DNA of 64,000 nucleotides from Psammoneis japonica (taxonomy: Eukaryota), in NCBI GenBank assembly GCA_008632985.1, contig QPGO01000007.1, positions 744,001-808,000 on the forward strand, in the 5' to 3' direction. Made by a program: the position numbers and the translations under genes. Of this stretch, positions 4,576 through 52,600 are shown one piece after another (positions within the stretch are counted from its first letter, which is position 1; each line of letters opens with the position of its first letter). The notes below the pieces were generated by a model. The model was not told the DNA's origin. It saw only the letters and a program-made list of their open reading frames with translations, and ran no database searches.

Positions 4576-4859
4576 CGAGTGGCAGACAGACACGTACACG
4601 ACAGACGAACATGGTTGAAGTTGACCGTGTCCTCGTATTGATTCTACGTATTCTACGCATTCCCGATCCTTGCTGTCAAAATTTCCCACCATCGAAAAAT
4701 TTAGCTCATCAACGTACGTGAACGTAAGGATTTGGCGCGAAAAAAGCGGCTCGCCACGCATGTCACCGAGGGATCAATTGCAGTTGCTCCTCTTCCATCT
4801 TGTAACACCCAACCCACACAACGGTCTCTCATACCACTCTCTCTGTTGGGTTAGGAACG

Positions 4860-18880: not shown

Positions 18881-20260
18881 TGACAGGATTTGAACAAGAT
18901 TTTAGTTTGTCATGCACAATTGTGTGTGCTCTCAGTTCTGCATGTGACATGTGATGCAGTTTGCTTTTGAGCCACTTGGCTCACAAGAATGATGGCAGCA
19001 GTCAGATGTTGTGATGCCAGTCTTTTGGCTCCTTCAACGGTCTCTGCACAGAGACTGGTCTGCTGTTTAGACAGCTTCAAGGAGTTGTTGTTTTCTTCCA
19101 CCCATTTTCTCTTCATTTTCTGTCAGATTGACAGTCTTGCTCATTTTCATCCGCCAAGCATTCACCATCATTGTCATCAACAATTTTTCAACAATGCACA
19201 TTGTTGTGGTGGAAGCACACACCCAATTTCATCATTGCTGAACATTTGGATTGGATCAGTGCATTCTGATCTGTTCAAGGTTCCTCATCACTGGACACAT
19301 GATCCATTCAATGGATGTTTGTTTGGTCAGGAATTCCACATTCCCCAACACTTGAGGTTCTGAATTCCCTGCAGTGGGCCCTGCTCCAGGTTGACAAACA
19401 GACCAACCTGTTCTGCTCAGGCTCCACTGCTGAACTGCAGGCACTTGCACTCATGTGATGCACTCCGACTCTGGCCTTGCCACAGGCACGCCAAGTCTGC
19501 TGCTCCACATCTGCTCAGACTGCTGGTCTTCTGCAGCTCCACAAGGCCCATGAGGATGACTGTGAGAGGAAGCAGCCATGACTGCAGTCTGTGTTGGTGT
19601 TCAGGGTGCACTTTCTCATGTTTGTTTGTTCACCCTTGGCATCTGATCAGGTCATCTGACTGACACAAAATGACAAAGATTTGGGGGTCTTGTCCACCTC
19701 TGGTTGGCATGTTGGCACAGGGTTTTCAACCCACCACTCTGCTTGTGCAAGCAACCCAAAGCACCGCCAGCTGCAGGCTTGGATTTGCCAGCACAACTCT
19801 GTGGACCGGATGGGAAGCTCAGCACTTGACCACAAATGGGGCAGCACAGCCCAGCAGCTTCTGATTTGCAACACAGTTCAAGATTTCAAGTCAAGCATCA
19901 AGTCAAGTTTCAAGTCAAATCAAGCTCAGCTTCTGGCCAGTTCAAGTTCCAATGCCCTCCTCAGCTGCACCATGGTGCTGGCCAGGCAGCAACAAACCAA
20001 TGGCTCAAGACAAACATTTGTTCTGAACCAAGCTGCAGACAGTCCACCGCACTCTGCCCTCAACATTGATGGGACAGACTCATGCCAGGTCCTCTTCACA
20101 TTTGCTCTGGGACAACTCAGTGCCCTGTTTTGCAATGACTGCACCAGCCAAATGCCTCTGCCATGTGGATGCAAAGCCCTCCTGGTGGTGTTGATTGGCT
20201 TCTACACTGTTAAAGTGCATGGAGGCACTGATGTCAGCAACAACCCAATTTTGTTTGTGC

Positions 20261-20591
20261 TTGAAGAATTCACTGACTGTCATCTCAGCCCTGACTGTGC
20301 AGCATCTCTCTCCACTGCCACAGTGCCATCTGCTCCCATGGCTGGCTTGTCACCCACCAAACCACATGACCCAGTGTGTGATTTCAAACAAGGCATCAAA
20401 TGTGACCCACTTGCCTCCCCCCTTTGTTCACCCTTGAAGAATTCACTGACTGTCATCTTGGCCCTGACCGCACAGCATCTCTCTCCACTGGCACCATGCC
20501 ATCTCCTCCCATGGCTGGCTTGTCACCCCCCAAACCACATGACCCAGTGCATGACTTCAAACACAAGGCATCAAATGTGACCCACTTGCCT
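20261..20591 (+). repeat. About 174-bp tandem duplication within gag
   Basis: ttgaagaattcactgactgtcatct...aaatgtgacccacttgcc at 20261-20415 and 20435-20591. Confidence 0.85.
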
Positions 20592-21249
20592 TCATGACTC
20601 ACAAGGTCTGACAAGCAGTGGCACACATGGCACACCTCCATCATTGCACAGGCATGCTCCCAGGGGATGTTGACCACACTCTCGATTTGAAGCACAAGCC
20701 CTCTGCACCCAAAGACAAGGCATTGTCACCTGAACAACAGAAGCACATGTTTGCCATCTTTGAATGCATCTTGCAAAATGACAAAGGCAAGGCACTTGTT
20801 CATGACATGTGGCAATGCCTGAGCCATGTGCCAAAAAATCTCTGAGTGTGCCTTTGCATCCACCCGTGCATCACTTGATTCATTGACCCTTCTCACTTGC
20901 CTCACCACTGCTTGTCTTGGTGATGGCACCTGGAAGAGATCCACCCAGGCCTTCACATTTCACTGGCAAGAGGACGCACTGGGTTGCATTGGTTTGCAAT
21001 CTTGTTGGTCAGGAGGAGGTCGTGGATGAGTTTGACAGTGCCAATGTGTTGTTGATGCTTGCAGTGTCATTTTATGAGCACTGCATGTGCCTGTCAATTG
21101 ACCAAGTCCACAACTTCAGGACACCATTGATTGCATTCCACAATGTGCTCTGGCAACTGGGGAGCAGTGGAAATGCATCAGATTTGCTGCTTGTGTCTGG
21201 AGGTCAATGCACCATCTTTGAGAGACAAACAAGAATGACAATGAGGAAA

Positions 21250-22560
21250 AGGGAGTGCCTGGGATGCATCTCATGAGTGGCAGCCTTGGCATGCACCAGC
21301 CAATTTGTCTGCACAAATGTTCACCTTTGCAGTTGATGGAGGGGAATGGACTGGGGCATTCTCATCTTGGTGTCCCTTGCCCCACTTGATGGTGAGGCTG
21401 GGTGAAGAAGCAATCTCCACTGAATCTCTCTTTGACGTCAAAGTGTGCAAAATTTCGTTGATTGTGTCCCAATCAGAAGCAAGTGCATTGGCTCCATGGT
21501 GCCACAAACAAAAATCATGAGAGTCATCTGACTTGCCTTCTGGAGATGGAGTGGGCAAGGCAAGATGCAATTTCTCTAGACAAGATGCCAGAGACTTGTT
21601 GTCACAATGTGTGTCCGCTGCTTGAGTCAACTTGGCTCGACAAGATTTGATGCATTGGCAAATGAAGCAGACAATGGAGAAGATTCTGCAGGCTTCTGTT
21701 TGGTGCAAAGACAACTTCTTTCCAAATGCTGGCCCAGCACAATCCACCAGTGGAACACCTTGGAGTGCAATGGTCCATCCAAATGCAGCACCTTTGTTCA
21801 CCAACCCATCACTTCCTGCTGCAAGCTCTGAAGAAACAAGCACTGCATCAAGACAAGAGGTGACATGTGCAGGTCCAACTCTGCAAACAACTCTGATTCC
21901 CATTGTGGCAATGCCTGCAGCATGTCAAGAAATGATGCTGGGGCAGGTTGGGGTGCAGAGGTTGTCAGCGAGGTTCATGGAAGATCAAACTTCCATCTGC
22001 CATCTTCTGTTGTGGTCAGTTCAACTGGATGGGATTCATCTGATGGTGCAGGAACAGTCTCCATCTCCCCAATGGAGTCCATTCTTGTGCCGTTGACCAA
22101 GAAAATTTTCAAACCCCATGGATCCTTTGACATGCAAGCAGTCCTCTGAAGGAGAGAAATGCACCGACACTTGCACTCACATCTGGGAAGGAGAGACCAA
22201 CCATTCTCCAAGTGGCTCTTTCAATTGGTGAGTGGTTGGATGACACAGGCAAGTGCAGAGTTTCCTCCATGCTGACCAAGCTCTGGCACCCAGTTTGTGC
22301 TGTTCAATGCCATTTAATGTGCCAACACTGCTCTGAATTGAGGGATCCCCTTTGACTTTTGTTGGGTCCAAGGTGAGGCTGTCTGACAGAGTCATGTCAG
22401 AAACAGAGAGCACCTGCAAAACACAAGCAACGCCAATTGATCCACCGGATTTCTTGGTGAGTGAAGAGCTGAGACTGAAGGGCAACATCCACAATGTGCT
22501 GGTCATTGTCTTGCTGCAGAGGAAGCACTCCGTTGTGAGTCAGGTGGACTTTGCCACAGA
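21250..22560 (-). mobile_element. Non-LTR (LINE-like) retroelement fragment with RNase H-like domain, nested in the Copia
   Basis: GSDG...AAFGW...CDNKSL...SDWD...KWGKGHQD...NICADKLA matches the RNase H domain of non-LTR elements. Confidence 0.65.
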
Positions 22561-25500
22561 CTCTGTTTAAAAAAAGTGAACAGAAGCAAACCAACAGGAT
22601 TCCACATGCAGAAGCACCACATCCACGTCCCACAAGAAACTCTCACCCATGCCCAAATTCAGTTTGAATCCATGCAACTGCAACATGCAACAGTTTGTGT
22701 GATCAACATTGCACACAGAATGGCACGATCCTCTCCTGTGAGCAACATTGTGGCCTCCTGCTTTCTGTGGCGGCACAGTGCGACAGCACTTTTGCACCCA
22801 AGATGGCCTCCTGTGCTCCACGCCACACCATCTGTGCCCATGACCTGGCCCCTGATGACACTTGCAATGACGTGTTCTTTGACATTGACAGTGATGTTGA
22901 CCTCATTCCAGCTCATGCCTCTCAATCTTGCAGCCCCACTCTTGCCAAGAAACAGTGGCATTGCATCCCGCCTGATCACCAGCACTCATGGGACACCCCA
23001 CCTCAGTCCTCCAAGGCCATCATCCTTGGCTTGCACACTGCTTGCACTGGCAACTGCCATGACTTGGTGGCCATCAACCTTCATGACTTCCCTCTGGGCA
23101 GCAATGGTGACATCAACTTGTCTGCCAATGCTCATGACCTTGCATCAACTCCTGAACCTCCCAATGCTGCAAATGATGCAATGAACACTAACCCCATCCT
23201 GGCACACCTTATGAAGTGCAAGCCTCTGCCACCCGATGATCTGCAATGTCCCTTTTTGCCTGACAAACCTCCCTTGACCCACTCTGGCGAGAAACCCCCT
23301 GGCTCAAAGTCATCACCTGGTGCTGCCACTGACATCAAAATTGATGGACACACCATTGCTGTGTCAACAATCACAATGTTGTTTGCTCTGCCTTGACTCA
23401 CAACTCAACTTGCACTGATGCTCTGGTGGATCATGATGCCAATGGTGGAATTGCTGGTGATGGTTGTTCATGTCATCACATGCACTGAACAGCAGGTTGA
23501 TGTGCGCAAGGTGTTGACGACCACCAGCTTGTCAACATTTCTGTCATCACTGCTGGCAGTGTCATCCACATGCAATGTGGACCCATCATTGCCATCCTTC
23601 ACCAGTGTGCCTGCACTGGAAAGGGCAACAAGAACATGCACTCTTGTGGCCAGCTTGAGTGGCACAAGCGTGACATCAACAACCAGTCAATCAAGGTCCC
23701 CAATGGCCTGCAACACATCACCACCATTGATGGCTGCATCATTCCCATCAACATCAAAGGTGGCCTGCCACACATTGCCATGTGCGTGCACACCAATGAC
23801 AAATGGGATGATCCACCCTGTGTTGTTCTCACTGGTGATGACACCTGGGACCCATCTGTGCTCAACCACCAGTTCGCCAATGATGAAAAATGGCACAATG
23901 CCATGTCCAACCTCCAGGATGACCCCACCACCAACCTCTTTGACGAGTTTGGCAACTGTGATCACCATCATGTCATGAACAACATGATGCTTGTGGGGAC
24001 TCCATCCTCAACAATGATCACATCCTCCCAACATCCGATTTCTTCTGTGAATGCCATGAGCCCAAAGTCACCCCCAAGGATCCCAACTTTGAGTCCCTGC
24101 ACCCCTGTTTTGGTTTCCTCTCAAAGGACACAGTTCACTGCACTTTTGATTGCATGACCCAATGTGCCCACATGCCTGCATGCATGCATTTGAAAAAGGT
24201 GCACAAGTTGCCCAACCCAACTCTCAATGTTCGCCGATGCAATGAATCCATTGCCACCAATGCTGTGCACTCCAGCACTCCTGCCATTGACTCTGGATGC
24301 ATCAGCACACAACTCTTTGTTGGCACAGAATCTTTCATCACCAATGTGTGCAGCACCAAGATGGACAAGGAATTTGTCAACATGCTCAAAGACAACATTC
24401 ACAGCTGCGGTGCTCTGTCCAAGCTCATCAGCGATCATGCTCAAGTTGAGATCAGCAACAAGGTCCTTGGCATCATCAGCGCCCTCTTTGCATCTAGCTC
24501 TTTGACAGCACCAGAACTTTGCTGAACACTGCTGCCAAACCATGAAGAACATGGCCATCACCATCATGAATTGCTTTGGCTCCCCAGCATGCATCTGGCT
24601 CCTTGCTCTCTCATGTGCATGTGCTTTGTCCTGAACCACCACTCCCAAAATCAGCCCCCTCCTCCATTTTCAATGGTGGGAACCTGTGTGCCACCACCTG
24701 GATGATTCCAACTGGCCATCTGAATGCCGCGAGTTGTGTGGTTGCTCTGTTGGCATTGCCAAACACATGGGTCATCAAATGACTTTCAAGATGCTTTGTG
24801 AAGACACTCAGAAGATTCTTTGCTGGTCCATCTGTGCCACCGCCCATGACCCATCAGCTTGCAATCTGCATCTTGATCCTTCTGATTCTTGATGGGGAAT
24901 CTGCTGCACCCTTCATCAAATCTGGCCTTGACTCTGAGGGTTTGCTGGATTCACCAGATGGGAAGGATGTCTGTCAGGATGCCCAAAATGCCGGTCTTTG
25001 ACCCCAAGGACATCATTGGATGCACCTTCCTCATGAAGCCACAATGGGATGGACAGTGCCACAGAGCCCGCATTGTCAAGGCATGATTGGGAAATCAGCA
25101 ACAACCCGGAACTTGTCAAGTTCATTTGTTCAGTTGACAACAATGAGTGCAAGGAAATCTTTGCATGCAATGACATCATCCATCACATGATGGAGCAAGA
25201 AGATGAGGACACCACTGTCTGGAAGTTCCAACACATCATCTCACATGAAGGACCATTGAGACCTCACAATCCCTCTTGGAAAGGCTCAAGCTACAATGCC
25301 ATGCTTGAATGGCAGAGTGGGGAGATCACATCTGACCTTCTTGCCATCATGGCCAAGGATGAGGATGACCCTGTCACTTGTGCCATCTGTGCATGCAAGC
25401 ACAGTCTGCTTGAAACTGATGGATGGAAATGCTTCCGCATCACAGCTCTGTGCCAGAAGAAGCTGTTCTGCAAGGCCAATCAAACCAAGCTGCAATCTTC

Positions 25501-28098
25501 TTTTTGTGCTGCGCCACACTGCAAGCATGGGCATGAAGTGGTCTGGGACTGCAAGCATGCCTTGGCCCTTGACAAGCGCAATGGCAACCTCAAGTGGGGA
25601 AGTGCAACAGATCTTGAGATGACTCAGCTTGGTGAGTGTGAGGTCTTCTTCCATGATTGTGGACACTGCAAGGATTCCAGCACCCCAGCAGGACACAAAA
25701 AGATTTGGCTGCACCTTGTCTGTGATGTCAAACATGACAGTGGGCACAAAGCACAACTTGTTGCCAATGGACACCTCACGGACACACCCATCAACAGTGT
25801 CCACTCTGGAGCAACAGTGCCCCTCCATGGCCTCCAACTGATGGTCTTTTCTCAGCCAAACTCAATGAGCTGGAGACATGGGTGACCAACATTGGCAATG
25901 CCCACCATGAAGCCATGACCAAGGAGAAACCGCACATTGTTGCAGGTCCCAAATTTGAAGAATTGGAAGGACACATCCTTGTCATCCACAAGGCTCTGCA
26001 TGGCTTCCACAGCTCTGGCAGCCTCCAATGGCTCAAACATTTTGCCAGTTGTCTGCAAGCTGAAGGATTCTTCCTGTGCCATGCCCAACCTGACATCTGG
26101 TGGCTGTGCCAGAATGGTGACCATTGCAAACATGTGGCAGTGCACGTGGATGACATGGCCTTTGCCATGAAAGATCCTCAGGCCTTTGTTGACACTCTCA
26201 CTGAGAAACACAAGTTCAAACTCAAAGGCACTGGACCATTGGAACTTCACCTTTGTTGCAACTTCTCACATGATTCCAGTGGCACACTGTGCCTTGCTCC
26301 TTGCAACTGCATTGAGAACATGGTCAAACTTGCACATGCCACTTTGGGGAGAATCCTTGCAGTGACGTGCTGTCCCCTCTTGAAAAGGGAGACCACCCTG
26401 AGCTCAACACCTTCAAACTGCTCCTGATGGCATCCATCTATTTCAGTTCTTGGTTGGTTCCCTGCAATGAGCTGCATCACTTGGTCACATTGACACCACT
26501 GCAGCCATCATGTCTCTCTCTCTGGCTTCTGCATGGCACCTTGTCAAGGCCACCTGGATCATGCCAAACATGTCTGTGGACACTTGTCCAAGATGCAACA
26601 TGGTGCCCTGTGTGTGCACACCAAGGAACCCAGCTGTTTGGACCTCCCCAAGCCTGTGTGTGGCTGGGCTCAAACCATGTGTGATGATGTGGAAGAGCTG
26701 CTTCCCGAAGACATGCCTGAGACTCTTGGCAAGTTTGTCACCACAACCCATTTTGTTGATGCAAACTTGTTCCATTGCATGCTCACTGGATGCTCCATCA
26801 TGGGCACCACTCATTTCCTCAACAAGTTTCTGGCTAAGAAACAGTCAAGACTGCAACTTGTGGATCTGAGTTCATTGCCACCAGGATGTGTGTTGAACAG
26901 ATCATTGATCTGTGCATCACGTTGTCTCATCTCGGCATCCCGACTCGTGACACCCGTTGCATGCTCAGGGACAGCAAGTCAGTTGTGGATGGTGCTGCTG
27001 TCCCACACTCCAAGTCACACAAACAACACACCACCCTCTTGTTCCATTGTGTGTTGAGGCAATTGCCTCTGGTTTCCTTGAGTTTCACTTCATTGAAGGT
27101 TCCCGCAACCCCGCTGACATTCTCTCAGCAAACAAAGGGGGTTGCTCCCAGGTTTGGAGCCTCCTCCATCCTCTCATGTTTTGGAACTTTGATCCTGGGG
27201 CCTTCAGCCAATCTAACTTGAAACCCATCTCTGTGGACTCCTCAAGCAAACTGGAAAGTGACTGGATTTAAACAAGATTTTAGTTCATCACACACATGAT
27301 TGTGTGTGCTCTTGGTTCAGCATGTGATGTGCGCACGATGCAGTTTGCTTTCAAGACACTCAGCTCACAAGAACAATGACAGCAACACCAACATCATGAC
27401 ACCAGTCTTTTGGCTCCTGCGATGGTTTCTGCATGGAGACTCATCTGCCATTTAGACAGCAGTGAGGAGTTGTTGTTTTCTTCCACCCGCTTTCTCTTCA
27501 TTTTCCATCATCTCTGCTCTCCACTTGCCCCCCTCTCCCAATGGAGACATTCATGTGACAAGACTGCAGTCAGCAACAGTGGTGGCAGCCAGCAGCAGCA
27601 GCAGTGGAAAGGAGGATGAGAGACATTGACACAACACTTGCTGTGGGGGGTGGTCAGCCCTCTTGTTGGCCTTGCCGCCGCTGGCCGCTGTTGTCACCAA
27701 CTTTTGGCTGGCCCCATCGTCTCTCTCCTGGCGGGCGGTTGTGTCTCCTCATTTTCTCATTCATCAGTGTGAAGGTTCACATCTGCAAGAAAAGGTGAGT
27801 AAACAAGTCTCAGGCAACACAGCTGAGGAAGTGATGGAAAGTGTTGTTGTGCGGCGATCAGATCGATTGAGATTGTCGATCGGCGGCTTCACTCGTGTCA
27901 TCGCTCATCTGTCATCTGCGCGCGCGTCAGGCCGCGAGGCACCGCGGCCGGGTACTCGTACCGTACCGTACATACGAGCATCGGGTGCAAAGGGATGATG
28001 AGGTTCGGCTTTCGCACTTCTACTCCTTATTCTCACTCATCACTCAAGTCACTCAGGCTTCTCCTTCCACAGGCTCAGTGCTCCTTCCAAACGTCATC

Positions 28099-29733: not shown

Positions 29734-29899
29734 GAGCGGGAGATGCAAATCAGCTTACCATCTTGCAACTGTACATGATGGGCACGACATACCTGTCACG
29801 ACCTCTGCGTGCCGATTGATCAATTGATTGATCCACTGTTTCTATGTAGAATGCTAGAAATGTTTGCTTAGTAGAAAGCGTTGTCTACGAGAAAGTAAT

Positions 29900-31330
29900 C
29901 TGCATGACTGCACTGACAGGCTGGAGAGGAACCCCACTACAAACTGTCTTAACTACAAGATGGGTCCTGTGCCAACAGCAGCAGTGCTCCACACCCATCC
30001 GGTGGAAAATGGAGTTAGATCAATGGCAACTTGAGCAAGTCCTTTGTTGTTGTTTGGGCTGCAGGCATCAATGAACCAAATGCTGTCAATGGCCACGCTG
30101 GCCTGCATGGCCAGCATGGTTGGCATTTTGGCAAATGACAAATTGCTTGCCTGATCAATCCTCACAATGTGGTCTGCTGGCCATTTTCATGAATCACATG
30201 TGCATCCCCAGCTCCATGATCCAAGAAAGCTGCGGCAGTTCTAAGAACAAAGAACTCAACAAACTTGCCATTTTCATCACTGATGTCTCCCCCAGAGTTG
30301 GGAAAGATTTCCAAAATGATGACATTTTGGGAGGAGATCATCTGCTGATTGGAGAACTGCTTTGTGAGGTGGAAGGCAGCTCTGATGAAGAACAACAACT
30401 TGGTGAGGTGGAAGGTGCACTGCTCTGTGATGGAAAAGGCAGCACTGGCAGAGAAATGCTTGTTGAGGTGGAAGGGACAGTGCTTGGTGGTTTGGAAGGC
30501 TGCTCTGTCACAGTGCTGCTTAAAGAGGCAGAGTGCAGCTCTCATGGAAGACTGCTCTAAGAGGCAGAAGGTAGCTCCAGTCGACCGCTGCTTGGACAAG
30601 CAGAAAGAAGCTCTGATGGAGCACTGCTGGGAAAGGTGGAAGGCACTTTTGATGGACCAGTGCTTGGCAATGTGCTGGGATGATTCAGGGACAGAGAGGA
30701 CAAGGGCTGTTCTGACAAGACTTCATCATTGAGACTGCAGCTGAGGGCAGTTTGCACTCCAATGCCCAGTGCCCAGCAACTCTGGCACTGCAGATGACTC
30801 TTTTGAGCAGAAGAAGACATGCCGGTCAGCAAGCATGGAACTGGAAATGAAGGCCAGTGAAAGCAAGGCAGTTCCTCCAGCAATTTCTTGACTGGCATAG
30901 GTTGTCAGGTCCCACTCCACAAGCTGTTCATCTTCCATGGCCAAAATGGACACCACAGCCAAGGGAGTCATCCCATGTGCAGGCTTTGTCAACCAGGTCA
31001 TGAGCATGCTGATCTCATTCCACTCATCCTTCCACACAGCATCCAAGACCTCTTCTTTGAGGTCCACAGCAGCACCCAAGGAAACAATTGCATGTCAGAC
31101 TTTCAGCTCCACTCTTAAGAATCTTGACACCCAAAGTTGGTGGTTGTTTCTGAAGCTCCACCATGAGTGCAAGTGTCTGCTGCAGAGTGCAAGGTTGTTT
31201 GCCAGAGGAATGTCCACGAGAAGCTCAATCTTTGCTTGAAGCACCTTGTCTCAACATTTCTGAAAACTGATTTTGGTGAGCAGCCATTTCAAACATCCCA
31301 AATTGGCTGAAATCAACACAGCGACGCCTT
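29900..31330. mobile_element. Degenerate TpA/CpG-depleted repeat-derived block, unassigned
   Basis: Same compositional signature as the transposons; short repeated GEVEG-like units at 30350-30680. Confidence 0.4.
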
Positions 31331-31592
31331 CCAATTTGACGCTTCTTGTAATCTACGTGCAAAGATGATCTTGGTGAAGCTCCGCATCAGTGTTGAGAAC
31401 AACTAATTGCTGAAAGAGGTGGCAGCAGTGCATGTCTTACCTCTGCTGAAGAGCCTTTATAAAACCTAGAGTAAAATCATAATAACTTGAAAGTTTACTG
31501 ATACAAACCACTAATAGCTGGCTTAATGGATTGATACAGACACATCAACATGCATGAGTGATCTCCCGCAAGACCTTCATTCTACAAAAAGT

Positions 31593-33594
31593 TCAGTACA
31601 CTTCCACGTGCCATTGCTTGTTCTTCTTCAACCCCTTTAACCACTCATCGTAATCGATATTCTTCGATTTGGCGACACTTTGGAGCATGTCTTGGATACC
31701 AGGCATCATTCCCTTCAACCCGCAAAAGTAAATGTGGGCTCCATTCTCCAACTTTTCAAACACTTCATCAGCATACTCTTCGACCTTGTCTTGGATGTAC
31801 ATTTTGCCTCCTTTCTTGTTCTCTTGTTCACGCGAAAGAGCATAGTCAAGACGGAATTGATCAGGGTTGTTCTTCTTCACCTCTTGCCACTCGTCATCGT
31901 ACAAAAGAGCGTCGCTGTTGGCAACACCCAAGAACAACCATGCTTGTCCCTTGTAAGCATTCGCTGCAGGAGTGTCCTCTGTGAACAACCGACGCACAAA
32001 GCCACGGTAGGGAGCAATACCAGTTCCAGTAGCAACCATAATGTAATCCGTGTTGGGATCCTCCTCGGGCAAGAGCATGACCTTACCGGCGGGACCAGTC
32101 ATTTGCACTTGATCGCCTGGCTTGGTATCACAGAGGAAGTTGGAGCAGATACCCTTCTTGGCAGGGTCGTCGGCTTTCAACTCGGGGCACCAGTAAGTGG
32201 CACGACGGACGCAAAGACTTCCAGTTTTGCCAGACATATCATCACCGTAACGACTGGAAGCGATTGAGTAGAGACGGACCGAGTGAGGCTTTCCGTCCTT
32301 TTCACGGACACCTGGGGGGATGACACCCCATGACTGTCCTTCCCAGTAGGGAAACTTGCCCTTGTGGTCAATGACAATGTGACAGGTCTCTCCCGTTGCC
32401 TTGGGTCCAACAATTCGCTTGGTGGAGACAACCTTTCCGGTAAAGGGAGCCTTATTCTTGAAAACATTAACGGGAACGGTGGACTGGTCCCAGTAAGGGT
32501 CAGCTTCCAAGAAGTCCTGCTTTTTGGACCCTTTTACAAACTCACTACCGGTAATGAGAGCTAGGGCGGCGAGTGCGGCAAGCCCACCCTTTTTCCCCGC
32601 AAGGGTAATGGCAGACACAATCACACCGGCGGAAACGACACCGGTAAAAATAGAAGACAAGGCTACCGCTGTGGGCATACCCAAGAGAAAAGCACCCATT
32701 GCTCCCGTCCAAGCACCGGTTCCTGGAAGTGGAATACCGACAAAGGCAGCCAACGAAGCCCACTGTTTCTCTACTGAACCTACACCAAGACTTGCCGACT
32801 TTTCTTCTGCACGAGAAAGCATGGGAGCCATCAATTTTCTAATGGAACAGCATTATGGTGAGCAAGGTGCAAACAATATTTGCACACAAGGGTAAATAAA
32901 TAGCAAAAGCATCACTCCAAACGACTCACTTGAGCTTTTCATTGCGGAGCAGAAACATCAGGGGAACAATTGGCATCATGTTACCAATCACACAGGCTGG
33001 CAAGACTGTAGTGATGGGCAAGCCCATCCAAAAGCCTACAGGCACTGCACCACGAAGTTCGACTACGGGCAAGGCTGAAATAATTGCCAAAACTGCCACA
33101 TCGGGAAGGCCAAAGGACTGAAAGTACTGCGCAATCTTTTGTCCTACATGCAAATGTTCCGTCGAAGCACCGGCAGTCGCAGCTAGAGCGGGTCCAGTAC
33201 TGAGCAAAGTTAATGCACTAAACGCAAGAGCAGCCCGTGTAAAAATCTTCAATGTCGCCTTGCCAAACTTAAACTTCCTCGTTTTCGAAAAGGATGCTTC
33301 CGAAACATCTGAAGATTTCGTATAGAGCGGTCTAGTAACACTGACTCTATCGCTGATAGGAGAAAGAGCAGTCCGAGCAGCATTTACTCGATACACATTA
33401 CACGAATTGAACCTATTTAGGGGAAAAGCAACGACACAAGACGATTTTGGTGGTGAATGACACAAACAACATGACAGTCGCGCTAGCTAGCAACTACCCT
33501 ACGGATCAACATACCGCACAGAGGGACCTGAAGAAAAGGCATCTATCAAAGGCAGGCCCAGAGTCACAAAGGCGGCAAACGACAACAGCTTCAT
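31593..33594 (-). CDS. Plastid-targeted fusion of a 'small multi-drug export' type membrane domain and ferredoxin-NADP+ reductase; exons 33594-33515, 33412-32930, 32838-31593
   Basis: Presequence ...[40 protein letters not shown], then in the same exon [12 protein letters not shown]...WHVEVY, nearly identical to the FNR at 5501-6436. Confidence 0.85.
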
Positions 33595-33753
33595 CTTTCG
33601 TCTCCTTTTTGATGCGTCGCCTTGTCGATTGATGCCGATGTGCGGCCGCGGCATGGCGACTGAGCAACGAACGGCGGACGGTGGACTGCGGGCGTTTCGC
33701 GCAAACCCGGATGTCGTCTGGGACCAAATCCTGGAGCGGTTTTTGTTCCTTTG

Positions 33754-34451
33754 NNNNNNNNNNNNNNNNNNNNNNNNNNNNNNNNNNNNNNNNNNNNNNN
33801 NNNNNNNNNNNNNNNNNNNNNNNNNNNNNNNNNNNNNNNNNNNNNNNNNNNNNNNNNNNNNNNNNNNNNNNNNNNNNNNNNNNNNNNNNNNNNNNNNNNN
33901 NNNNNNNNNNNNNNNNNNNNNNNNNNNNNNNNNNNNNNNNNNNNNNNNNNNNNNNNNNNNNNNNNNNNNNNNNNNNNNNNNNNNNNNNNNNNNNNNNNNN
34001 NNNNNNNNNNNNNNNNNNNNNNNNNNNNNNNNNNNNNNNNNNNNNNNNNNNNNNNNNNNNNNNNNNNNNNNNNNNNNNNNNNNNNNNNNNNNNNNNNNNN
34101 NNNNNNNNNNNNNNNNNNNNNNNNNNNNNNNNNNNNNNNNNNNNNNNNNNNNNNNNNNNNNNNNNNNNNNNNNNNNNNNNNNNNNNNNNNNNNNNNNNNN
34201 NNNNNNNNNNNNNNNNNNNNNNNNNNNNNNNNNNNNNNNNNNNNNNNNNNNNNNNNNNNNNNNNNNNNNNNNNNNNNNNNNNNNNNNNNNNNNNNNNNNN
34301 NNNNNNNNNNNNNNNNNNNNNNNNNNNNNNNNNNNNNNNNNNNNNNNNNNNNNNNNNNNNNNNNNNNNNNNNNNNNNNNNNNNNNNNNNNNNNNNNNNNN
34401 NNNNNNNNNNNNNNNNNNNNNNNNNNNNNNNNNNNNNNNNNNNNNNNNNNN
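33754..34451. other. Assembly gap (N run)
   Basis: Run of n. Confidence 1.
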
Positions 34452-35251
34452 TTGGGAGCAACCCCAATGCTTGCTGAGAATGTCAGCAGGGTTGTGGGAG
34501 CCTTCGATGAAGTGGAGCTCAAGGCAACCAGAGGCAATTGCCTCACGCACACGGTGGAACGACAGTGCGGTGTGTCGCTTGTGTAACTTGGAGTGCGGGA
34601 TGGTGGCACTGTCTACAACCGACTTGTTGTCACCGAACATGTAACTGACATTGCGGATCGGGATGCCAAGGCAGCGCAGGGTGATGCGCAGGTCGACAAT
34701 CTGTTTGACACAAGTCCTTGCTGCAACAAATTCAGACCCGCAGGTCGCAGTCTCCAGGGTGGCTTGCTTCTTGGAGAACCAATCAGCCGGGAATTTGTTG
34801 AGGAAGTGGAGCATTCCCATGACAGAGCATCCAGTGAGCATGCAATGGTGCAAGTTTGCATCGACGTAGTGGGTGGCAGTGACGAACTTGCCAAGGGGCG
34901 GTGGAGCGTCCTTCGGGATCATCTCTTCTGCTTCGCCGCACACGGAATGCATCCATTCATGGGCCGGAGCAGGGAGATCTGAATGGTCGGGCTCTTCCGT
35001 ACAAATGCGGAGAGCGCCGTGTCGCATCTTGGAGAGGTGCCCACAGACGCGTTTGGCACGATCCAAGTGGCCTTGACGGGGTGCAGCTCGGAAGCTAGAG
35101 AGTGACATGGCGGCCGTGGCAATGTCAATTCGACCAAGAGACACTGCCCATTGGAGTGAACCAACAAGGGACTGGAACTTGTGAATGCCATCGGGCTCCA
35201 GCAGTTCGGAAGTGTCCAGTTCGGGGTGGTCGCCCTTCTCCAGAGGTGACA
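34452..35251 (-). mobile_element. Inverted Copia RT-end/RNase H fragment, paralogous to 42240-43040
   Basis: LSPLEKGDHPELD...WFSKKQATLETATCGSEF...NPADILSKHW on the minus strand. Confidence 0.92.
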
Positions 35252-38200
35252 GATTAACAGTCTTGCTCATTGTCAACCCATTGAGCAACCGCCATCGTCG
35301 TCGTTGATTTGCCGACGACGCCACTTCAATTCTGCATGGACCTCCGTACATGTTCCACATGCATCGGCAAGTTTACGCGCATCCAACACCAGGGCATCGG
35401 CAGGAAGTTAACGTCACGGTCATGGCCTCCTCACCGCTGGACATCTGGATTGATTGTGCCACCTTTGATCGCTGAAGACATGCATTCAACGGTCATGTCC
35501 AAGTCCATCCTTGATCCTCATCCCTTGACATGCCCATTCATCGGTTAACGGTCAAGAACCCTGCATGTTCAAGGATCTCTGTCGCTGAAGACACATGTGT
35601 GCACATGTCTTCACGGCCAAGGACTTGAACCCACTCTTTGGACTGCGGCTTTGCCACCACTCTACAAGCACGCCGAGTCTGTTGCACCTGATCTACCCCG
35701 GACTGCTGGTGCTCTGCAGTTCCACTGGGTCCACGAGGACGACTGTGAGAGCAAGCAGCCGTGATTGCAGCCTACGTTGGGGCGAGGGTGTTTTCCCGCG
35801 TTTGTTCGTTCGTCCACAGTGCCTGGCGCCTGCGTCAACTGGCCAGCCTGATCGGAAAATCCAACCGACATAAAATGAGAACGGTTTGGGGGTCTTGTCC
35901 ACCTCCAGTCAGCTTGCCTGCGGGGGTTTGCAACCCGCTGCTCCGCTCGCAAGCAACCCAAAGCGCCACTGGCTGCGGGTTCGAACGTGCCGGCACAACT
36001 CTAAGGACCGGACAGGAAGTTTAGCACTTGACAACGAACGGGACAGCAAAGCCCAGCGACTTCTGATTTTGGGGCAGTTCAAGATTTCAAGTCAAGTCCA
36101 TTTCAAGTCAAGTCTGTTCTCACCCAAGCTTCAAGTCTGTCTTCGCTTCCCAACAAGAATTGATTGTCCTGACACCACTTTTGTCTACCATGGTTCTCAC
36201 TTGTCAGCAACAAACCGATGGTTTTGAGCACGTTGTTGGAACCGTGCTTGCCCAAGGTGCTGGGAGTCCTCTTCGTTTGGCTTTGGCCCAAGACGGCATG
36301 GACTCGCATCAAGAACTGTTCACGTTCATGCCGTCCCAAATCGACTCGCTTGAGTGCGACAACGGCACCAATGTGATCCCTTTGCCCCGCGGTTGTGAGA
36401 ACATGTTGGCAGCCCCAGTTGGTCTGTACATTGTCAAAGCACACAAAGGTCTTGACGTTGCCAATGACTCCTCGTTGTTCACGCATGACGAGTTCCTTGC
36501 CCACCGCCTCAGCCCCGACTGCATGTCTTCTGTGTCCATCGGCAGCTCACCCCTCGCACCTCCGCATGTCACCAACCCGACCAAGGCACGCGACCCGGTG
36601 CGAGACTTCAAGCGAGGCATCAAGCATGACCCCACCGCTTTCACGGCTCTCAAATCCGACAAGCAGTGGCACACTTGGCACACCTCACTTGTGGCACAAG
36701 CCCGTGCCCCCAAGACGTCGAGTGCATCCTAGACTCGTCGTACAAACCGACCAGCCCCAAAGACAAACTGCTCTTTGCTGAACAGCAAAAGTGCATGTTT
36801 GCCGTCTTCGAACGCATCCTTCTCACCGACAAGGGCAAGGCTCTCATTCGCGAAAATGTGGGGTCTTCTGACACCCAGACCGTCTGCCGCGCCTTGTCTG
36901 AGCATGCGCTCGCCTCCACCCGTGCATCTGTCGAGTCCCCCACCTTGCTGGCGTGCCTCACCACCGCACGTCTTGGTGATGGCACTTGGAAAGGTCCGAC
37001 CCACGGGTTCATCCTTCATTGGCAAGATCAGTTGCGCAAGTGCGAGGCACTCATCCCGGCCAGTGACCACTTCTCTGAAGGACAGAAGTGCATCATGCTC
37101 GAGAATGCCGCACACCCTGTCGAGGAACTCCGTGCTGTCAAGAACCAAGCTGATCAGCATCGCACGCAGAGTGGCAAGAGCCTCACATACGATCAACACT
37201 GTGGCTTGCTGATGTGTTTTCATCCCAGGTGAGAAACGCGCATGCGGAGGTGAGACATTTCGTCTGTCCCTTTTCCATTGCCATGCTTTTTGTGCGAGCA
37301 AATCTGACTGGACTTTCCCCCGATTTTTCATTTCTTCTTTCTGCAGACATGTTTATTTTGAAAAGCCAGCCGTCATTCTCATTGGTTGAAGGGTGCGCAC
37401 AAGAAAAGCGCTTTCTCGAAAGCGGCATTTTTTGGAGTGAAACTGACAGCTGTCTGCTCGTTGTTGTTATTCTGGTGCATTTGAGAGACTGTTCCACTGT
37501 TTCTTTCACCGAATCTGACCACTTTGAAAGAATGCACGCATTGTTCATTGTGTGAAGAGCTCACACCAAAAAAGAACGGCGTTCTAACTCTGTCATTTGC
37601 ACAAGAAAAATCGGGGGAACTGACTTCGCACGTGATTTTTTTGCGCGATCGGCCATTTCAAAGATCGACTGATTTGTCGACCTGTGTGGGACACTTGAGT
37701 GAACAAAACAATGGGATTGAAATGGCAGCGTCAAAGTTCAATGTGTGTCTAGTCATTGTGTGATTTGACATGCTCAAGCAGAGTTAAAGATGAAATGTTG
37801 ACAAAATTTCACCGCTCAAAATGACTGGTTCTATCTTAGAATAAAATAAAATGGCTGCAACACTGAGATGTCGCTAATGGCATTGTTCTACTTTACAACA
37901 ATGAAACTGTCACACTTGCATCTGAGATTCTTTATCCTCACACACCCTCAAAACCGAACACATGACGATTCTCTTGTCAGCAGCGAAATCTGATGTTGTC
38001 GCGCGACCCAAAAGCGTCGTCCACAACGACTCAAAGTGTGGACGATACATTGTGAGAATCACAGCAACGTGTCATAGAAACATTCTTCGTTGTCAGTGTC
38101 CGGTGTCAAGTAGATGGAGCAGCGCGTTGATGAGAATCCTACTTCGCAAGCTGAGGAAGAGAGAAAGAGGCATCAAAAATGTCATGAGTCAAAAGGCCAT

Positions 38201-41200
38201 CCACAAGGCACAACAAAAAACAAAGATCAAATTTTCAACCACATCATCGCACCGAGCGTTGTCTTGTTGACCTGTCTCGGCATTCTTACCTTCTCAGTCA
38301 CAACATCCGTTGGTGCAAGAATGGACGAGTTCATGGCGACGGCATGGTGCCATTTTCGGTTTGCGCGAATTGTGGTTTGTGGTTCGAGACATGGAAAAAC
38401 ACATTTTTGCTGTCATGGAGCTCGTTTTTTACTAAGATTTTTGGTGCTAAATGCACGTCTCATGTAGAAACACGTAGAAAACCTCGTGATGTGACCAAAA
38501 GTTTCTCACCCAGGATGAAAACACATCTGCTCCTCTCCGCGGCAGCTCAATGCGACAGTGCGTTTCAACCCAAGACGACACCTCGAGCTCCCCGACGCGC
38601 CATGTGCGCACACGACGTCTGCTCCGAGGAACCGTCCAATGATGTGTTCTGTGACATTGACAGTGACATTGACGTCCTTCAGGCCAATGCTGCCTGCACC
38701 CGTGGTCCCAGCCTCACCGGTGACCAATGGAAACGTCTCCCTCCCGACCACCAACGGATTTGGGATTCGTTGCCCCATTCCTCCAAGGCGATCATCCTTG
38801 AGCATTCTTGCCCGCCTCCCCGCAACCCGCAAGACAGCAACTGCCATGAGTCCATTGCGGCCAACCTTCACGACCACCGCCTTGGGAGTGACGGTGATGT
38901 CAACTTGTCCAACACGACTCCTGCTGACTCTGGTGACTCCACTCCAAATGTGGGTGCCACTTTGGACAATCCCATCCTGGCGCACCTCACCAAGCGCAAG
39001 CCACTGCCACCCGGTGATCTGCAACGTCTGTTGTCTCCTAACCAAGCCCCCAATGCTGGTCGACCGGGGCCATCCGCCGCTCCCTCTACCCCGCCAGCTT
39101 CTGCCGATGACACAGAACTTGGCGGCTGCACTTGCCATCGCGTTGATGACCACAATGTCATTTGCTCTGCCTCTGCTCATTGCTCCACACGCACTGGTGC
39201 TCTGGTCGATCGTGGGGCCAACGGCGGCATTGCTGGCGACGACGTTCGCATCATTGCACGCACCTCTCGCCAAGTCGACGTTCAGGGCATTGATGACCAT
39301 CAATTGGTGGACATCCCTGTTGTCACCGCTGGTGCCGTCATTGAGACCCAGTGTGGTCCCGTCATCGCCATCCTCCATCAGCACGCATGCACGGGCAAGG
39401 GCAAGACCATCCATTCCTGCGGCCAGCTTGAATGGTGCAAACAGGATGTCAACGATCGCTCTGTCAAGGTGCCCAACGGCTTGCAATGCATTGCCACTCC
39501 TGGTGGCTGTGTCATCCCCATTGACATCAAGGGCGGCCTGCCTTGTGTTGCCATGCGACCTTGCACTAATGCCGAGTGGGACACCCTGCCCCATGTCATC
39601 CTCACCGGTGATGACACATGGGATCCTTCCGTCCTCGATCACTCTGTCACTGACGATGACCAGTGGTGCGACGCGATCTCTGACCCACAGGACGGTCCCA
39701 CTGCCAACCTGTTTGACGGGTGCGGCAACTGCCGTCATCGTGTCATTGTCAACGAGACCATCATGTCCACTTCCTTGTCTGCCGATCACGCGTCCACCCT
39801 CGATGATCACCTCATTCTGAACAACGACGTGTTCTGCGAGTGTCATCTACATGCGATTGACCCCAAGGACGACGACGTTCCGCCCCTGGAGCGCACTGTG
39901 CAGCCCAAGGACCCCCCCTTCGAGTCTCTTCGGCCTTGCTTTGGCTTCCCACCTGCCGATGCGGTCCGTCGTACTTTTGACTGCACCACGCAGTGCGCCC
40001 GCATGCCAGCCGGCACACACCTTGGGAAGGCCTGCAAATCACCCAACCCCGCCCTTAACGCACACCGCCGCAACGAGCCTGTCGCCACTGACACCGTTTG
40101 TGCCGACACCCCGGCCGTCGACTCTGGTTGCACCAGCGCCCAACTGTTTGTTGGCACCGAGTCTGCCGTCACTGACGTCTGCGGCACCAAGACGGACAAA
40201 GAGTTTGTCAACACACTCGAGGATCAGATCCGTGAGCGTGGTGCCCCATCCAAACTCATTGGCGACCGTGCTCAAGTTGAGATCAGCAACAAAGTGCTCG
40301 GGATCCTACGAGCCCTCTTCATCTCCAGCTGGCAAAGTGAGCCTCACCAGCAACACCAAAACTTTGCCGAGCGTCGACACCAGACCGTGAAGCGCATGGC
40401 GAACACTGTCATGGATCGTTTTGGTTCGCCCACCCACACATGGCTGCTGGCGCTCATGTGCGTGTGCTTCACACTCAACCATGCAGCATCCCCACGTCTC
40501 CACTGGCACACGCCCCTCGAGACTCTCACTGGCTCCACCCCGGACATCAGCCCATTGCTTCGCTTTCACTGGTGGGAACCCGTGTGCTTCCACCTTGATG
40601 ACTCCGATTGGCCGTCCGAATCCCGTGAGTTGCGTGGATGCTTTGTTGGCATTGCTGAGCACGTCGGCCACCAGATGACCTTCAAGATTCTCTCTGACGA
40701 GACTCAGAAGATCCTCCACTGGTCCAACGTACGCTCCGCCACCACCGATCCTGCCGTTCGAAACCTGCGTCTTGATCCTCCTGATGGGGAGCCACCTGAA
40801 CCCATCATCAAATCTCGCCATGATGACAACCCCGTCGATTCTCCTGATGGGGAGATCAGGACACCCAAGATGCCAGTTTTCGATCCGCAAGACATCATCA
40901 GACGCACCTTCTTCATGCAGCCACAAGAGGACGGACAATGCCACAGAGCTTGCATCGTCAAGGCCGTCGAAGACCACGAATGGAAAGTGAACGGCAATCC
41001 CGAGCTTGCTAAGTTCATCTGCTCTGTCAACAATGACGAACACGAGGAAGTCCTTGCCTGCAACGACATCATGAATCACATTGAGCAAGAAGACGAAGAC
41101 ACTGCTGTTTGGAAATTCCGACGCATCGTGTCACACGAAGGACCTCTGAAGCCTCATGACCCAACCTGGAAAGGCTCAAGCTACAACATCATGCTTGAAT

Positions 41201-43375
41201 GGGAAAGTGGGGAGATCACGTCCGAGCCTCTTGCCATCATCGCCAAGGACAACCCCATCACCTGCACCATCCATGCACGAGAGAACGGACTTCTCGACAC
41301 GGATGGCTGGAAGCGGTTCCGCACCATTGCGAGGCGCCAAAAGAAGCTATTTCGCATGGCCAACCAAGCCAAGCTTCGCTCCTTCCGCACTGCACCTCGC
41401 TGCAAGTGCGGACACGAAGTTCCCCGGAACTGCAAACATGCCATGTCACTAGACGAACGCAATGGCAACCGCAAATGGGGAGACGCAACTAATCTCGAGA
41501 TGGACCAACTCGAGGAATACGAAGTCTTCCATGACTGCGGGCCCTTCGAGTCTTCCACTCCTCCTGCGGGACACAAGAAGATCCGAGTGCACCTGGTGCA
41601 CGACGTGAAACATGACGGTCGCCACAAGGCACGACTCGTAGCCGATGGGCACCTCACGGACATGCCTGTTGACAGTGTCTGCTCCGGAGCAGTCTCCCTC
41701 CGTGGCCTTCGGCTGATGATTTTCCTGGCCGAACTCAACGAGTTGGAGACATGGGCCACCGACATTGGCAATGCCTGCCTTGAAGCCACCACCAAGGAGA
41801 AGCTCTACATTGCAGCCGGACCCGAATTTGGCAAACTCGAAGGACACATCCTTGTCATCCACAAGGCCCTGCATGGACTGCACAGCTCCAGCCTCCGCTG
41901 GCACGAGCGCTTCGCCGACTGCCTGCGAGCTGAAGGCTTCTTCCCCTGCCGCGCCGAACCCGACATTTGGATGCGCAGGAACGGCGACCACCATGAATGC
42001 ATTGCCGTTTATGTGGATGACCTCGCCATTGCTGTGAAGGACCCTCAATCTTTCGTTGACACTCTCACGGAAAAGTGCAAGTTCAAGCTCAAGGGTGCGG
42101 GACCCATTGAGTTCCATCTGGGTTGCGACTTTTCCCGGGATCCCGACGGCACCTTGTGCCTGTCTCCGCGCAAGTACATCGAGCGCATGGTCGACAGCTG
42201 CACCCGACTGTTTGGGGAGAAACCTGCCACCAACGCCCTGTCACCTCTGGAGAAGGGCGACCACCCCGAACTGGACACTTCCGAACTGCTGGAGCCCAAT
42301 GGCATTCACAAGTTCCAGTCCCTTGTTGGTTCACTCCAATGGGCAGTGTCTCTTGGTCGAATTGACATCACCACGGCCGTCATGTCACTCTCTAGCTTCC
42401 GAGCTGCGCCCCGTCAAGGCCACACTTGGATCGTGCCAAATGCGTCTGTGGGTGCCTCTCCAAGATGCGACACGGCGCTCTCCGCATTCGCATGGAAGAG
42501 CCCGACTGTTCGGATCTCCCTGCTCCGGCCTGTGAATGGATGCATTCCGTGCACGGCGAAGCAGAAGAGATGATCCCAAAGGACGCTCCACCGCCCCTTG
42601 GCAAGTTCGTCACTGCCACCCACTACGTCGATGCAAACTTGTGCCATTGCATGCTCACCGGACGCTCTGTCATGGGAATGCTCCACTTCCTCAACAAATT
42701 CCCGGCTGATTGGTTCTCTAAGAAGCAAGCCACCATGGAGACTGCGACCTGCGGGTCTGAATTTGTTGCCGCAAGGACTTGTGTCGAGCAGATTGTCGAC
42801 CTGTGCATCACCCTGCGCCACCTTGGCATCCCGATCCGCAATGTCAGTTACATGTTCGGTGACAACAAGTCGGTTGTAGACAGTGCCACCATCCCGCACT
42901 CCAAGTTACACAAGCGACACACCACACTATCGTTCCACCGTGTGCGTGAGGCAATTGCCTCTGGTTGCCTTGAGTTCCACTTCATCGAAGGCTCCCGCAA
43001 CCCTGCTGACATTCTCAGCAAGCATTGGGGTTGCTCCCAAATCTGGGACCTTCTCCGCCCCCTCATGTTCTGGAACTTCATTCCATCCGAAGTCGAATCT
43101 GTTTCTGTGGCTCCTCAAGCAAACTGGGGAGTGACAGGATTTGAACAGGATTTGGGTGCGCGCGAAATGTCGCGCGCTGTTTAGTTTGCCGCGCACAGTT
43201 TTGTGTGCTTTAGTTCCGCGCGTTCGCGCACGATGTAGTTTGCTTTCGAGCCACGAGGCTCACAAGAATAACAACAGCAGCCCGATCACACTGACTTGCA
43301 CGTCTTTCGGCTCCTGCAATGGTCTCTGAGCGGAGACTCATCTGCCATTTAGACAGCAGCAAGGAGTCATTGTTT
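35252..43375 (+). mobile_element. Younger Ty1/Copia element: PBS about 35252, gag from about 36190, pol to about 43130, PPT about 43125-43131, truncated 3' LTR 43132-43375; no 5' LTR
   Basis: Protease LVDRGANGG; integrase VATDTV, SEPHQQHQNFAERR; RT HLVHDVKHDGRHKARLVADG, YVDD; RNase H; frameshifts at about 36705 and 42421. Confidence 0.95.
37211..38527. mobile_element. Non-autonomous TIR DNA transposon (1317 bp) inserted in Copia gag, 4-bp TSD TGCT
   Basis: 27-bp TIRs gatgtgttttcatcc(ca/tg)ggtgagaaac; tgct at 37207-37210 and 38528-38531. Removal restores GLLLS, as in the old copy at about 22750. Confidence 0.9.
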
Positions 43376-52300: not shown

Positions 52301-52600
52301 GAGATGATCTTTGACAATGAATTTGTGAAAGAACACATCACAAAATCACATGAAAATTTTCCAATCAACAATCAGGTGTTGTGTTGGGGGTGCACTTTCA
52401 ACAATGAATGTGCAAACAAATTCAACAATGAAATGTGCAAACAAATAGACAACCCAGTGCTCCAACAACACACATGGGGGTTTTATTTGTGTGGCACGCC
52501 GCACAAATTTGAGCAAATCTCGTGGCTCCACTGATGCGTTGGACTGTCCACGTTGCGGCAGCACTTGAAGTTGTGAGCCACGAGATTGAGCCACAGCAAG
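43376..52600. mobile_element. Degenerate repeat block of unassigned family with internal dispersed duplications
   Basis: Related units at about 43420-44190, 44195-44830 and 46350-46770, and at about 45360-45680 and 50915-51220; near absence of TpA and CpG. Confidence 0.6.
47220..47432. repeat. About 70-bp inverted repeat / foldback (MITE-like)
   Basis: ttgcatggaagcagcaccagg...gcagaaatgccaaaaaagtct at 47242-47289 pairs with agacttttttggcatttctgc...cctggtgctgcttccatgcaa at 47361-47408. Confidence 0.8.

Follow-up and report, generated by a model that had tools for sequence, protein, structure and literature searches.

TpA Loss Usually Precedes CpG Loss in Sampled Mobile-Element Copies of the Diatom Psammoneis japonica

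Copies of mobile elements in the diatom Psammoneis japonica usually lose the dinucleotide TpA ahead of CpG, and this order is the rule in the copies sampled here. The stretch considered (hereafter the window) comprises 64,000 nucleotides, C9:744001-808000, where C9 and similar labels denote contigs of the assembly searched (91.4 Mb, 597 contigs), and it carries two Ty1/copia elements, referred to below as the young Copia and the old Copia. It is probable, in our judgment, that inserted mobile DNA is subject to two distinct mutation processes, a fast one targeted at TpA and a slow one at CpG. The CpG decay is clock-like; the TpA loss is front-loaded and locus-dependent, a dose that records the locus and the early history of a copy and is unreliable as a clock. 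A preliminary description of this DNA had read two mutational clocks from the two elements: the order that it proposed, with TpA fast and CpG slow, is borne out by the hazards of TA and CG sites in 56 copies of the young element's family (family A; median ratio 18), but its treatment of TpA as a clock is not, given the behavior of family B (rho 0.06).

Composition and Conserved Codons of the Two Copia Elements

The features on which the argument rests are as follows.

35250-43407, + strand: young Ty1/copia element (CoDi-like), family A, internal region and 3′ long terminal repeat (LTR), no 5′ LTR; RVT_2 match; aligns to 273-7104 of a full-length copy of 7104 bp
43134-43407, + strand: 3′ LTR of the young Copia, 274 bp, from alignment to the full-length copy
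42010-42021, + strand: YVDD codons of the young Copia reverse transcriptase (TAT-GTG-GAT-GAC)
37211-38527, no strand assigned: non-coding DNA transposon nested in the young Copia, 1317 bp, with terminal inverted repeats and a 4-bp target duplication
34452-35252, − strand: inverted fragment of a second family-A copy (reverse transcriptase end and RNase H), 95% to 42238-43040, cut by an N gap
18881-27510, + strand: old Copia, sister lineage, with both LTRs (about 18881-19126 and 27259-27510), TpA and CpG both almost gone
26143-26154, + strand: HVDD codons of the old Copia (CAC-GTG-GAT-GAC), the Tyr codon now CAC
20975-22700, no strand assigned: insert in the old Copia without a family-A match, seen as an alignment gap, TA/CG-erased (TpA 0.03, CpG 0.13)
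43408-52600, no strand assigned: TG/CA-saturated block of decayed repeats, from composition
5498-6437, + strand: host oxidoreductase gene (NAD_binding_1), control, TAs retained
31592-32530, − strand: second copy of the host oxidoreductase gene, control, 95% identical to 5498-6437

The young Copia (35253-43407) holds 69 TA dinucleotides against 423 expected (observed/expected ratio, o/e, 0.16) and 504 CG against 604 (0.83), and the old Copia (18882-27515) holds 18 TA against 549 (0.03) and 68 CG against 530 (0.13). The minimum TA count in 200 shuffles was 382 for the young Copia, 494 for the old Copia and 563 for the block at 43408-52600, none of them near the observed values. Over the elements of the window TpA o/e is 0.01-0.22, below the 0.58-0.66 of the three host-gene stretches, where CpG o/e is 0.84-1.04. 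The young Copia had been described as still rich in CpG, on the evidence of two motifs that we find at 40066 and 39237, and as nearly free of TpA; the depletion is real, but "nearly free" overstates it, as about 74% of its TA sites have been converted, together with 15% of its CG sites. The joint loss of TpA and CpG described for the old Copia is confirmed by the ratios above. Both losses yield TG and CA, and the block at 43408-52600, with 29 TA of 617 expected and 50 CG of 534, is the end state of both, in agreement with the saturation described for 43.4-52.6 kb.

We also took 80 related reverse-transcriptase loci on metagenome contigs (hereafter environmental relatives), whose hosts are taken to be diatoms from the type of element, and scored the columns conserved among 55 of them, 22 for Tyr and 28 for Arg. 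In the young Copia, the 21 Tyr columns that could be scored read TAY five times (Y being a pyrimidine), TGY eight times, CAY five times and otherwise three times, and 25 of the 28 conserved Arg are retained. In the old Copia, 21 scored Tyr columns give one TAY, seven TGY, eight CAY and five others, and only 2 of the 28 Arg remain, with 10 TGN and 11 CAN codons in their place, which upholds the Arg codon loss described earlier. The change from YVDD at 42010 to HVDD at 26143 is likewise located as claimed; across 30 copies the Tyr codon of this motif, which retains its TA in the young Copia, reads TG in six and CA in one.

Kinship and Age of the Two Elements

The reading of the two Copias as one family at two ages is ruled out, as they stand 8.9% transversions apart. 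All 30 loci retrieved with the old copy lie at 7.8-10.1% from the young Copia, and the nearest kin of the old copy are at 2.6-3.6% from it. The two window copies represent sister families, and therefore the pair alone cannot show an order of loss, which was tested within families instead; the two-copy comparison of the preliminary description mixes family divergence with age. The old Copia is nevertheless truly older, because its LTR pair carries 8 transversions in 240 bp, compared to 10 in 4915 bp for 18 family-A LTR pairs. Of the earlier phrase "related older copy", the greater age thus stands, and the kinship is that of a sister family.

Order of Loss Within Families

Across the 56 family-A copies, TA loss spans 16-86% and CG loss 1-17% (rho 0.83), with TA/CG hazard ratios of 8-54 about the median given above and private transversions averaging 0.05%. 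The same order is seen in 297 one-kb windows (24 chosen stretches and the study window): where TpA o/e is below 0.15, CpG o/e is at least 0.5 in 46 of 113, and where TpA o/e is at least 0.3, CpG falls below 0.25 in 0 of 143. Among miniature inverted-repeat transposable elements (MITEs), fresh TA-rich copies occur within erased DNA, and a sister copy that has mutated retains 6 of 23 TAs and 24 of 32 CGs. One such family, about 390 bp long with long inverted ends (L121:3129-3518, L123:3006-3402 and kin), has many copies rich in TA and CG within fully erased DNA and others that are themselves erased.

Direction, Timing and Targets of the TpA Change

In 30 family-A copies, 93 TA-type columns (2716 states) read TG 1195 times, CA 842, TA 671 and CG 4 times, and 245 columns in 17 full-length copies give 1854 TG, 1317 CA, 926 TA and 10 CG. 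TA is present in some copy at all but 5 of 94 TA-type columns (56 copies), and TG or CA is chosen independently in each copy. The earlier claim that TA is ancestral and drains into TG and CA is in accord with these column states, as well as with the conserved Tyr codons now reading TGY or CAY. Change of TA to CG is rare (10 of about 4100) because TG reads CA on the other strand, so that the target is gone. At 258 CG columns of the 30 copies, CG is retained in 6557 of 7514 states, with 531 TG and 393 CA.

The two LTRs of one insertion are identical at birth. In 18 LTR pairs (4915 bp, from 20 loci of which 2 have a single LTR, a count that includes the nested pair L077, dropped afterwards), we find 82 differences at TA sites, 53 TG/CA swaps, 66 differences at CG sites, 15 other transitions and 10 transversions. 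These differences within pairs place the TA change in the chromosome after insertion, and on both strands. The corresponding hazards are 1.25 for TA, 0.12 for CG and 0.001 for transversions per site; compared to this TA hazard, other private A-to-G changes in family A amount to 0.4%. At columns that are neither TA nor CG, private A-to-G changes (0.40%) exceed C-to-T changes (0.21%), an excess that perhaps reflects off-target activity of the TpA process.

The family of the DNA transposon at 37211-38527 shows the same TpA-first decay as Copia, its 25 copies reading 685 TG, 638 CA and 465 TA, with CG retained in 1440 of 1617. Since a non-coding DNA transposon is equally affected, no RNA step is needed. 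The two copies of the host oxidoreductase gene (940 bp, 95% identity) share 23 TAs of 27 and 28; in this one case, then, duplication by itself did not set off the change, and duplication as a trigger is accordingly not supported. Composition or codon bias of the elements is ruled out by the LTR pairs, the DNA transposon and the destroyed Tyr codons. Taken together, the TpA change affects both strands, follows insertion, is independent of element class and spares genes.

A CpG Clock and a Locus-Dependent TpA Dose

The preliminary description had read both losses as clocks. Among 20 family-B copies, this holds for CpG loss, which tracks transversion age (rho 0.78, p 5e-5), but not for TpA loss. 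At sites defined outside the family, three B1 copies retain 70 of 118 TAs (59%), compared to 47 of 381 (12%) in eight equally old copies (p 3e-23), with CG retention of 222/402 and 588/1142 in the same groups (p 0.2). The TA-keeping B1 copies lie on C160, C196 and C356, where adjoining elements are also TA-rich, and in the codon test two TA-keeping copies retain 14 of 22 Tyr and 9 of 23 Arg (L044), and 12 of 22 Tyr and 14 of 28 Arg (L050). Of 30 copies from the old-copy search that are not saturated, eight show TpA and CpG losses that are about equal, with hazard ratios of 0.6-1.2 in which the CpG loss is somewhat overstated, the anchor being a sister family.

Residual TA sites on one strand occur at 2.58/kb in the oldest family-A copies and 2.61/kb in B1, though CG density is 65 and 42/kb, respectively. 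In older groups, one-strand TA sites drop to 1.5, 1.1 and 0.6/kb, and two-strand sites reach zero. As separate observations, C196:46000-86000, C160 and C356 are transposon-dense with weak TpA erasure, and C196 holds the least-mutated family-A copy seen, with 2 TA differences between its LTRs.

Sequence Context and Strand Pattern

Per-strand hazards in family A are 1.02 for TAC, 1.12 for TAT, 0.44 for TAA and 0.47 for TAG, showing a preference of about 2.3-fold for T-A-pyrimidine. The TAs that survive in old DNA are mostly YTAR (R being a purine), with TAY on neither strand (13 of 18 in the old Copia and 15 of 29 in 43408-52600). TA sites within 30 bp of each other changed in the same direction in 1058 of 1993 cases, compared to 1007 under the null (p 0.006), and retained TA sites cluster (306 against 270 expected, standard deviation 7). 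Long strand-coordinated tracts were considered as well and set aside, only this weak excess being seen.

The first kilobase of the element L085, its 5′ LTR region, has lost 0.29 of its TA and 0.04 of its CG, compared to about 0.8 and 0.1 elsewhere in the element. In L085, L082 and L086 alike, the 5′ LTR and leader are spared from both losses, and in L085 this amounts to 38 consecutive TA sites kept, which suggests local protection or recent gene conversion. TA retention in LTRs bears no relation to TA density in the flank (rho −0.07).

Environmental Relatives

Half or more of the conserved Tyr codons have been lost in 17 of the 80 environmental relatives, with Cys or His instead, and Arg is largely intact. 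In a quick tree these scarred relatives occupy four positions next to intact kin, with 13 of them in one cluster and some being near-copies. A protein search for Copia relatives from named diatoms gave at least 120 matches, and those listed carried no species name. Comparison of L232 with its intact kin L248 gives 28 TG, 26 CA and 19 TA kept, and seven environmental pairs yield context hazards of 0.73 for TAC, 0.71 for TAT, 0.21 for TAA and 0.24 for TAG. CpG has gone from four further relatives (o/e 0.05-0.37) in which TpA persists (0.50-0.75); the two processes are therefore separable.

Flanks of Insertions

Among ten flanks that were apparently unique among the sampled loci, eight had at most one TA in their first 150 bp, compared to 2% of controls; when three such flanks were checked genome-wide, two proved to be repeats, and several TA-rich "flanks" were young MITEs. 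The single-copy 5′ flank of L089 (C85:18999-19589) has no TA for 204 bp beside the LTR, with 11 CGs, and then dense TAs, a hint that TpA erasure spreads into the flank over about one nucleosome. Such spreading is unproven, the checked flanks being mostly repeats. Across 113 insertion flanks (families of 37211-38527 and 43134-43407), only 19 have at least 4 TAs at 250-450 bp; new insertions are thus kept almost exclusively in older erased DNA.

Proposed Mechanism and Candidate Enzymes

The fast process acts on chromosomal DNA once an element has inserted and replaces the A of TpA by G on either strand, with TAY preferred. It strikes hardest early and varies strongly between loci, and it affects retro- and DNA transposons but not genes. 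We hypothesize that adenine is deaminated to hypoxanthine at silenced chromatin by a host enzyme of the TadA/ADAT type, the change then being fixed at replication. Judging from sequence, we lean slightly toward such a host DNA adenine deaminase as the cause of TpA loss. The slow process turns CG into TG or CA at a pace that follows transversion age, and the likely chemistry behind it, by analogy with the diatom literature, is deamination of 5-methylcytosine in transposons that carry CG methylation. Once formed, TG and CA escape both processes, and therefore old elements end TG/CA-saturated.

ADAT2 is expected in any eukaryote, and the amphioxus enzyme is reportedly active on DNA. Genome-wide profile matches number 9 for PF00383, 5 for PF14437 and 4 for PF02137 (two genes). 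An ADAT2-like gene with HAE, PCIMC and RNDRFGG motifs lies on C26, and TadA-like genes are present too, with none singled out; an exact look-up of two of the deaminases returned no match. Two separate A_deamin genes (ADAT1/ADAR-type) lie on C40 (L259) and C79 (L260/L261), with no RNA-binding domain in the open reading frames (ORFs) scanned. We also note an ORF on C79 (L065:313-1785) that fuses a zinc-dependent deaminase domain to DIOX_N / 2OG-Fe(II) oxygenase, and identical dCMP-deaminase loci at C41:506240 and C317:55748, which are probably two haplotypes of one locus. The genome holds 27 methylase-domain matches. Cytosine-methylase copies at L138, L139 and L140 (C301, C297) lie in TpA-erased DNA (TpA 0.07-0.10, CpG 0.66-0.74), some with stops, and are possibly carried or silenced as mobile DNA; further matches lie on C10 and C28, and a TA-normal gene combining a chromodomain with a methylase on C34 (L141). 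As to known specificities, bacterial TadA relies on UACG and TadA-8e favors UA, according to the main text of PMC12296453, and the transposon islands of diatoms are CG-methylated, according to that of PMC9998398.

Several points weigh against this account. The copies were gathered by similarity to three query copies and are thus a non-random sample, and the TA-type columns of family B were partly defined by the TA-keeping copies themselves, an outside anchor being used later. Strand coordination is weak, without the long single-strand tracts that a processive deaminase might leave, and sequence cannot tell a damaged A from a damaged partner T. The deaminases found resemble an ordinary set, in which no expansion or fusion to a chromatin domain was seen, and DNMT5 was not identified in the three weak methylase loci examined.

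Alternative Explanations

The alternative closest to adenine deamination is a modified base at TpA in silenced DNA, whether N6-methyladenine that is deaminated or miscopied, or an oxidized thymine that pairs with G. Both losses occur in the same islands only, some 5′ LTRs escape the two together (retention of TA and of CG is correlated across 34 LTRs, rho 0.56), and the weak strand coordination suits a mark placed site by site, all of which such a base would accommodate; the TAY preference, however, resembles the UAC site of TadA. The genome had no PF05063 (MT-A70) match, which carries little weight as the control was matchless too. On balance we hold a modified base to be rather unlikely. Much further down the scale stands editing or misincorporation in the RNA/cDNA cycle of the ADAR kind, or a codon or composition bias of the elements. 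ADAR does favor a 5′ U (main text of 10.64898/2026.01.13.699255) and two A_deamin genes are present, but the LTRs of one insertion differ at TA, both strands and a non-coding DNA transposon are affected alike, TAG is disfavored, and the Tyr codons of the catalytic region are destroyed. RNA-cycle editing is refuted by the LTR pairs and the DNA transposon, and we give this whole class of explanation next to no credence.

Two further alternatives accept chromosomal mutation and differ in its tempo. Were both rates constant genome-wide, with TpA about 18 times faster, the family-A trajectory, the L-shaped plot of one-kb windows and the fresh MITEs in erased DNA beside their mutated copy (6/23 TAs, 24/32 CGs) would all follow; this strict model is contradicted by B1 copies of the same age (70/118 against 47/381 TAs) with equal CG retention, by TpA loss unrelated to transversion age in the 20 family-B copies, and by LTR pairs of which one member can retain all 18 TAs, and we regard it as improbable. 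Similarly improbable to us is a TpA process that set in or intensified recently on all elements at once, such that old copies lost CpG first and the order is an artefact of young families. The equal residual TA density of old family-A and B1 copies would fit it, as would the roughly tenfold gap in loss ratio between two copies on C196, of which one is very young (losses of 16% for TA and 1% for CG) and the other older (37% for TA and about a third for CG). Against it, one-strand sites keep falling in older groups (2.6, 1.5, 1.1, 0.6/kb) and two-strand sites fall to zero, and the presence of the signature in four other element lineages from environmental DNA argues against a quirk of one strain.

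Relation to Known Systems

Repeat-induced point mutation (RIP) of ascomycetes is a host mutation of mobile DNA that makes TpA from CpA. The process described here resembles it in being post-insertion, dinucleotide-specific, active on both strands and destructive of coding capacity. It differs in its opposite direction, TpA being consumed here, and in that a 940-bp, 95%-identical host duplicate keeps its TAs. It also differs from ADAR hyper-editing, being not one-stranded and needing no RNA intermediate. RIP has been linked to the RID/DNMT4 methyltransferase, according to the main text of PMC9998398.

The closest likeness is to the rhizarian Bigelowiella natans, in which TpA hypermutation of integrated nucleocytoplasmic large DNA virus and virophage DNA is described in the main text of a preprint (Mettrop et al., bioRxiv 10.64898/2026.01.13.699255), at about a thousandfold above background and in some lines only, with ADAT2 proposed as the enzyme. 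As far as that main text goes, both systems change TpA to TpG or CpA on both strands, target foreign DNA and spare host genes, and act on chromosomal DNA after integration at rates orders of magnitude over background. Rhizaria, however, belong to another supergroup than diatoms, and the targets measured in B. natans are viral insertions, transposons being hinted at by Pfam enrichment only. The main text of the preprint is without "CpG", "diatom" or "copia", and so gives no order relative to CpG decay, and as far as it was covered it gives no 3′ preference. The literature covered, with subscription papers mostly outside the search, held no report of TpA hypermutation in a diatom and only this preprint. 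With TadA/ADAT2 the shared traits are the A-to-G outcome and the context of a 5′ T/U and a 3′ C, the native substrate in that case being tRNA (main text of PMC12296453). In Phaeodactylum tricornutum, CG methylation of CoDi elements is DNMT5-dependent (Hoguin et al., PMC9998398, main text). Decay driven by 5-methylcytosine would share with our slow process the change of CG to TG or CA on both strands, the restriction to transposon islands and the rise with age; it explains the slow process only, and the main text of that study is without "TpA" or "deamina".

Other Features of the Window

Gene stretches alternate with blocks of mobile DNA across the window, with sharp boundaries. The 5′ LTR of the young Copia has been replaced by the inverted fragment of the second family-A copy; elsewhere in the assembly, 18 of 20 family-A loci have paired LTRs and 5-bp target duplications. 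Two annotated features remain.

7752-8744: plastid-type ATP synthase gamma gene, 84-86% identity to diatom proteins (Nitzschia inconspicua, Bacillariaceae and Cyclophora tenuis), which marks the host as a diatom; in the ESM Atlas its matches were bacterial clusters only
59950-64000, − strand: third decayed Copia in an intermediate state (TpA 0.07, CpG 0.27), RVT_2 at 61175-62053

Host genes at 52953-54452 and 54332-55560 carry a neurotransmitter-gated ion-channel ligand-binding domain and a periplasmic-binding domain. Erased blocks also lie at 17600-18880 (TpA 0.01) and 30000-31250 (TpA 0.09), their ORFs without a Pfam match. Across the erased blocks, 17 ORFs compared with Pfam gave no match at E < 0.001, and the 8 ORFs scanned in 43408-52600 gave no Pfam family.

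Implications

In such genomes, LTR dating and repeat annotation need TA and CG sites to be masked if many-fold inflation is to be avoided, because 201 of the 226 LTR differences lie at such sites, and the CpG clock is preferable to TpA for age estimates. Hundreds of replicate copies make rate, context and timing readable, and the loci that escape TpA loss offer a handle on target choice. If our reading is right, a TpA-directed A-to-G mutator is not confined to one rhizarian, diatom transposons are rewritten too, and the pattern points to a natural enzyme able to introduce A-to-G changes into chromosomal DNA.

A broader proposition, which we put forward as a real possibility although we would not wager on it, is that of an old eukaryotic genome defence common to Bigelowiella and several diatom lineages. 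A natural TAY-preferring DNA adenine deaminase would be directed to mobile DNA that has just been silenced and would destroy the Tyr codons of that DNA, killing it within a few percent of the CpG-decay lifetime. If true, such a defence would be to A:T pairs what RIP and APOBEC are to C:G, and a natural adenine base editor for chromosomal DNA; the TpA dose together with the CpG clock would then give the age of every insertion and show at which loci the defence breaks down.

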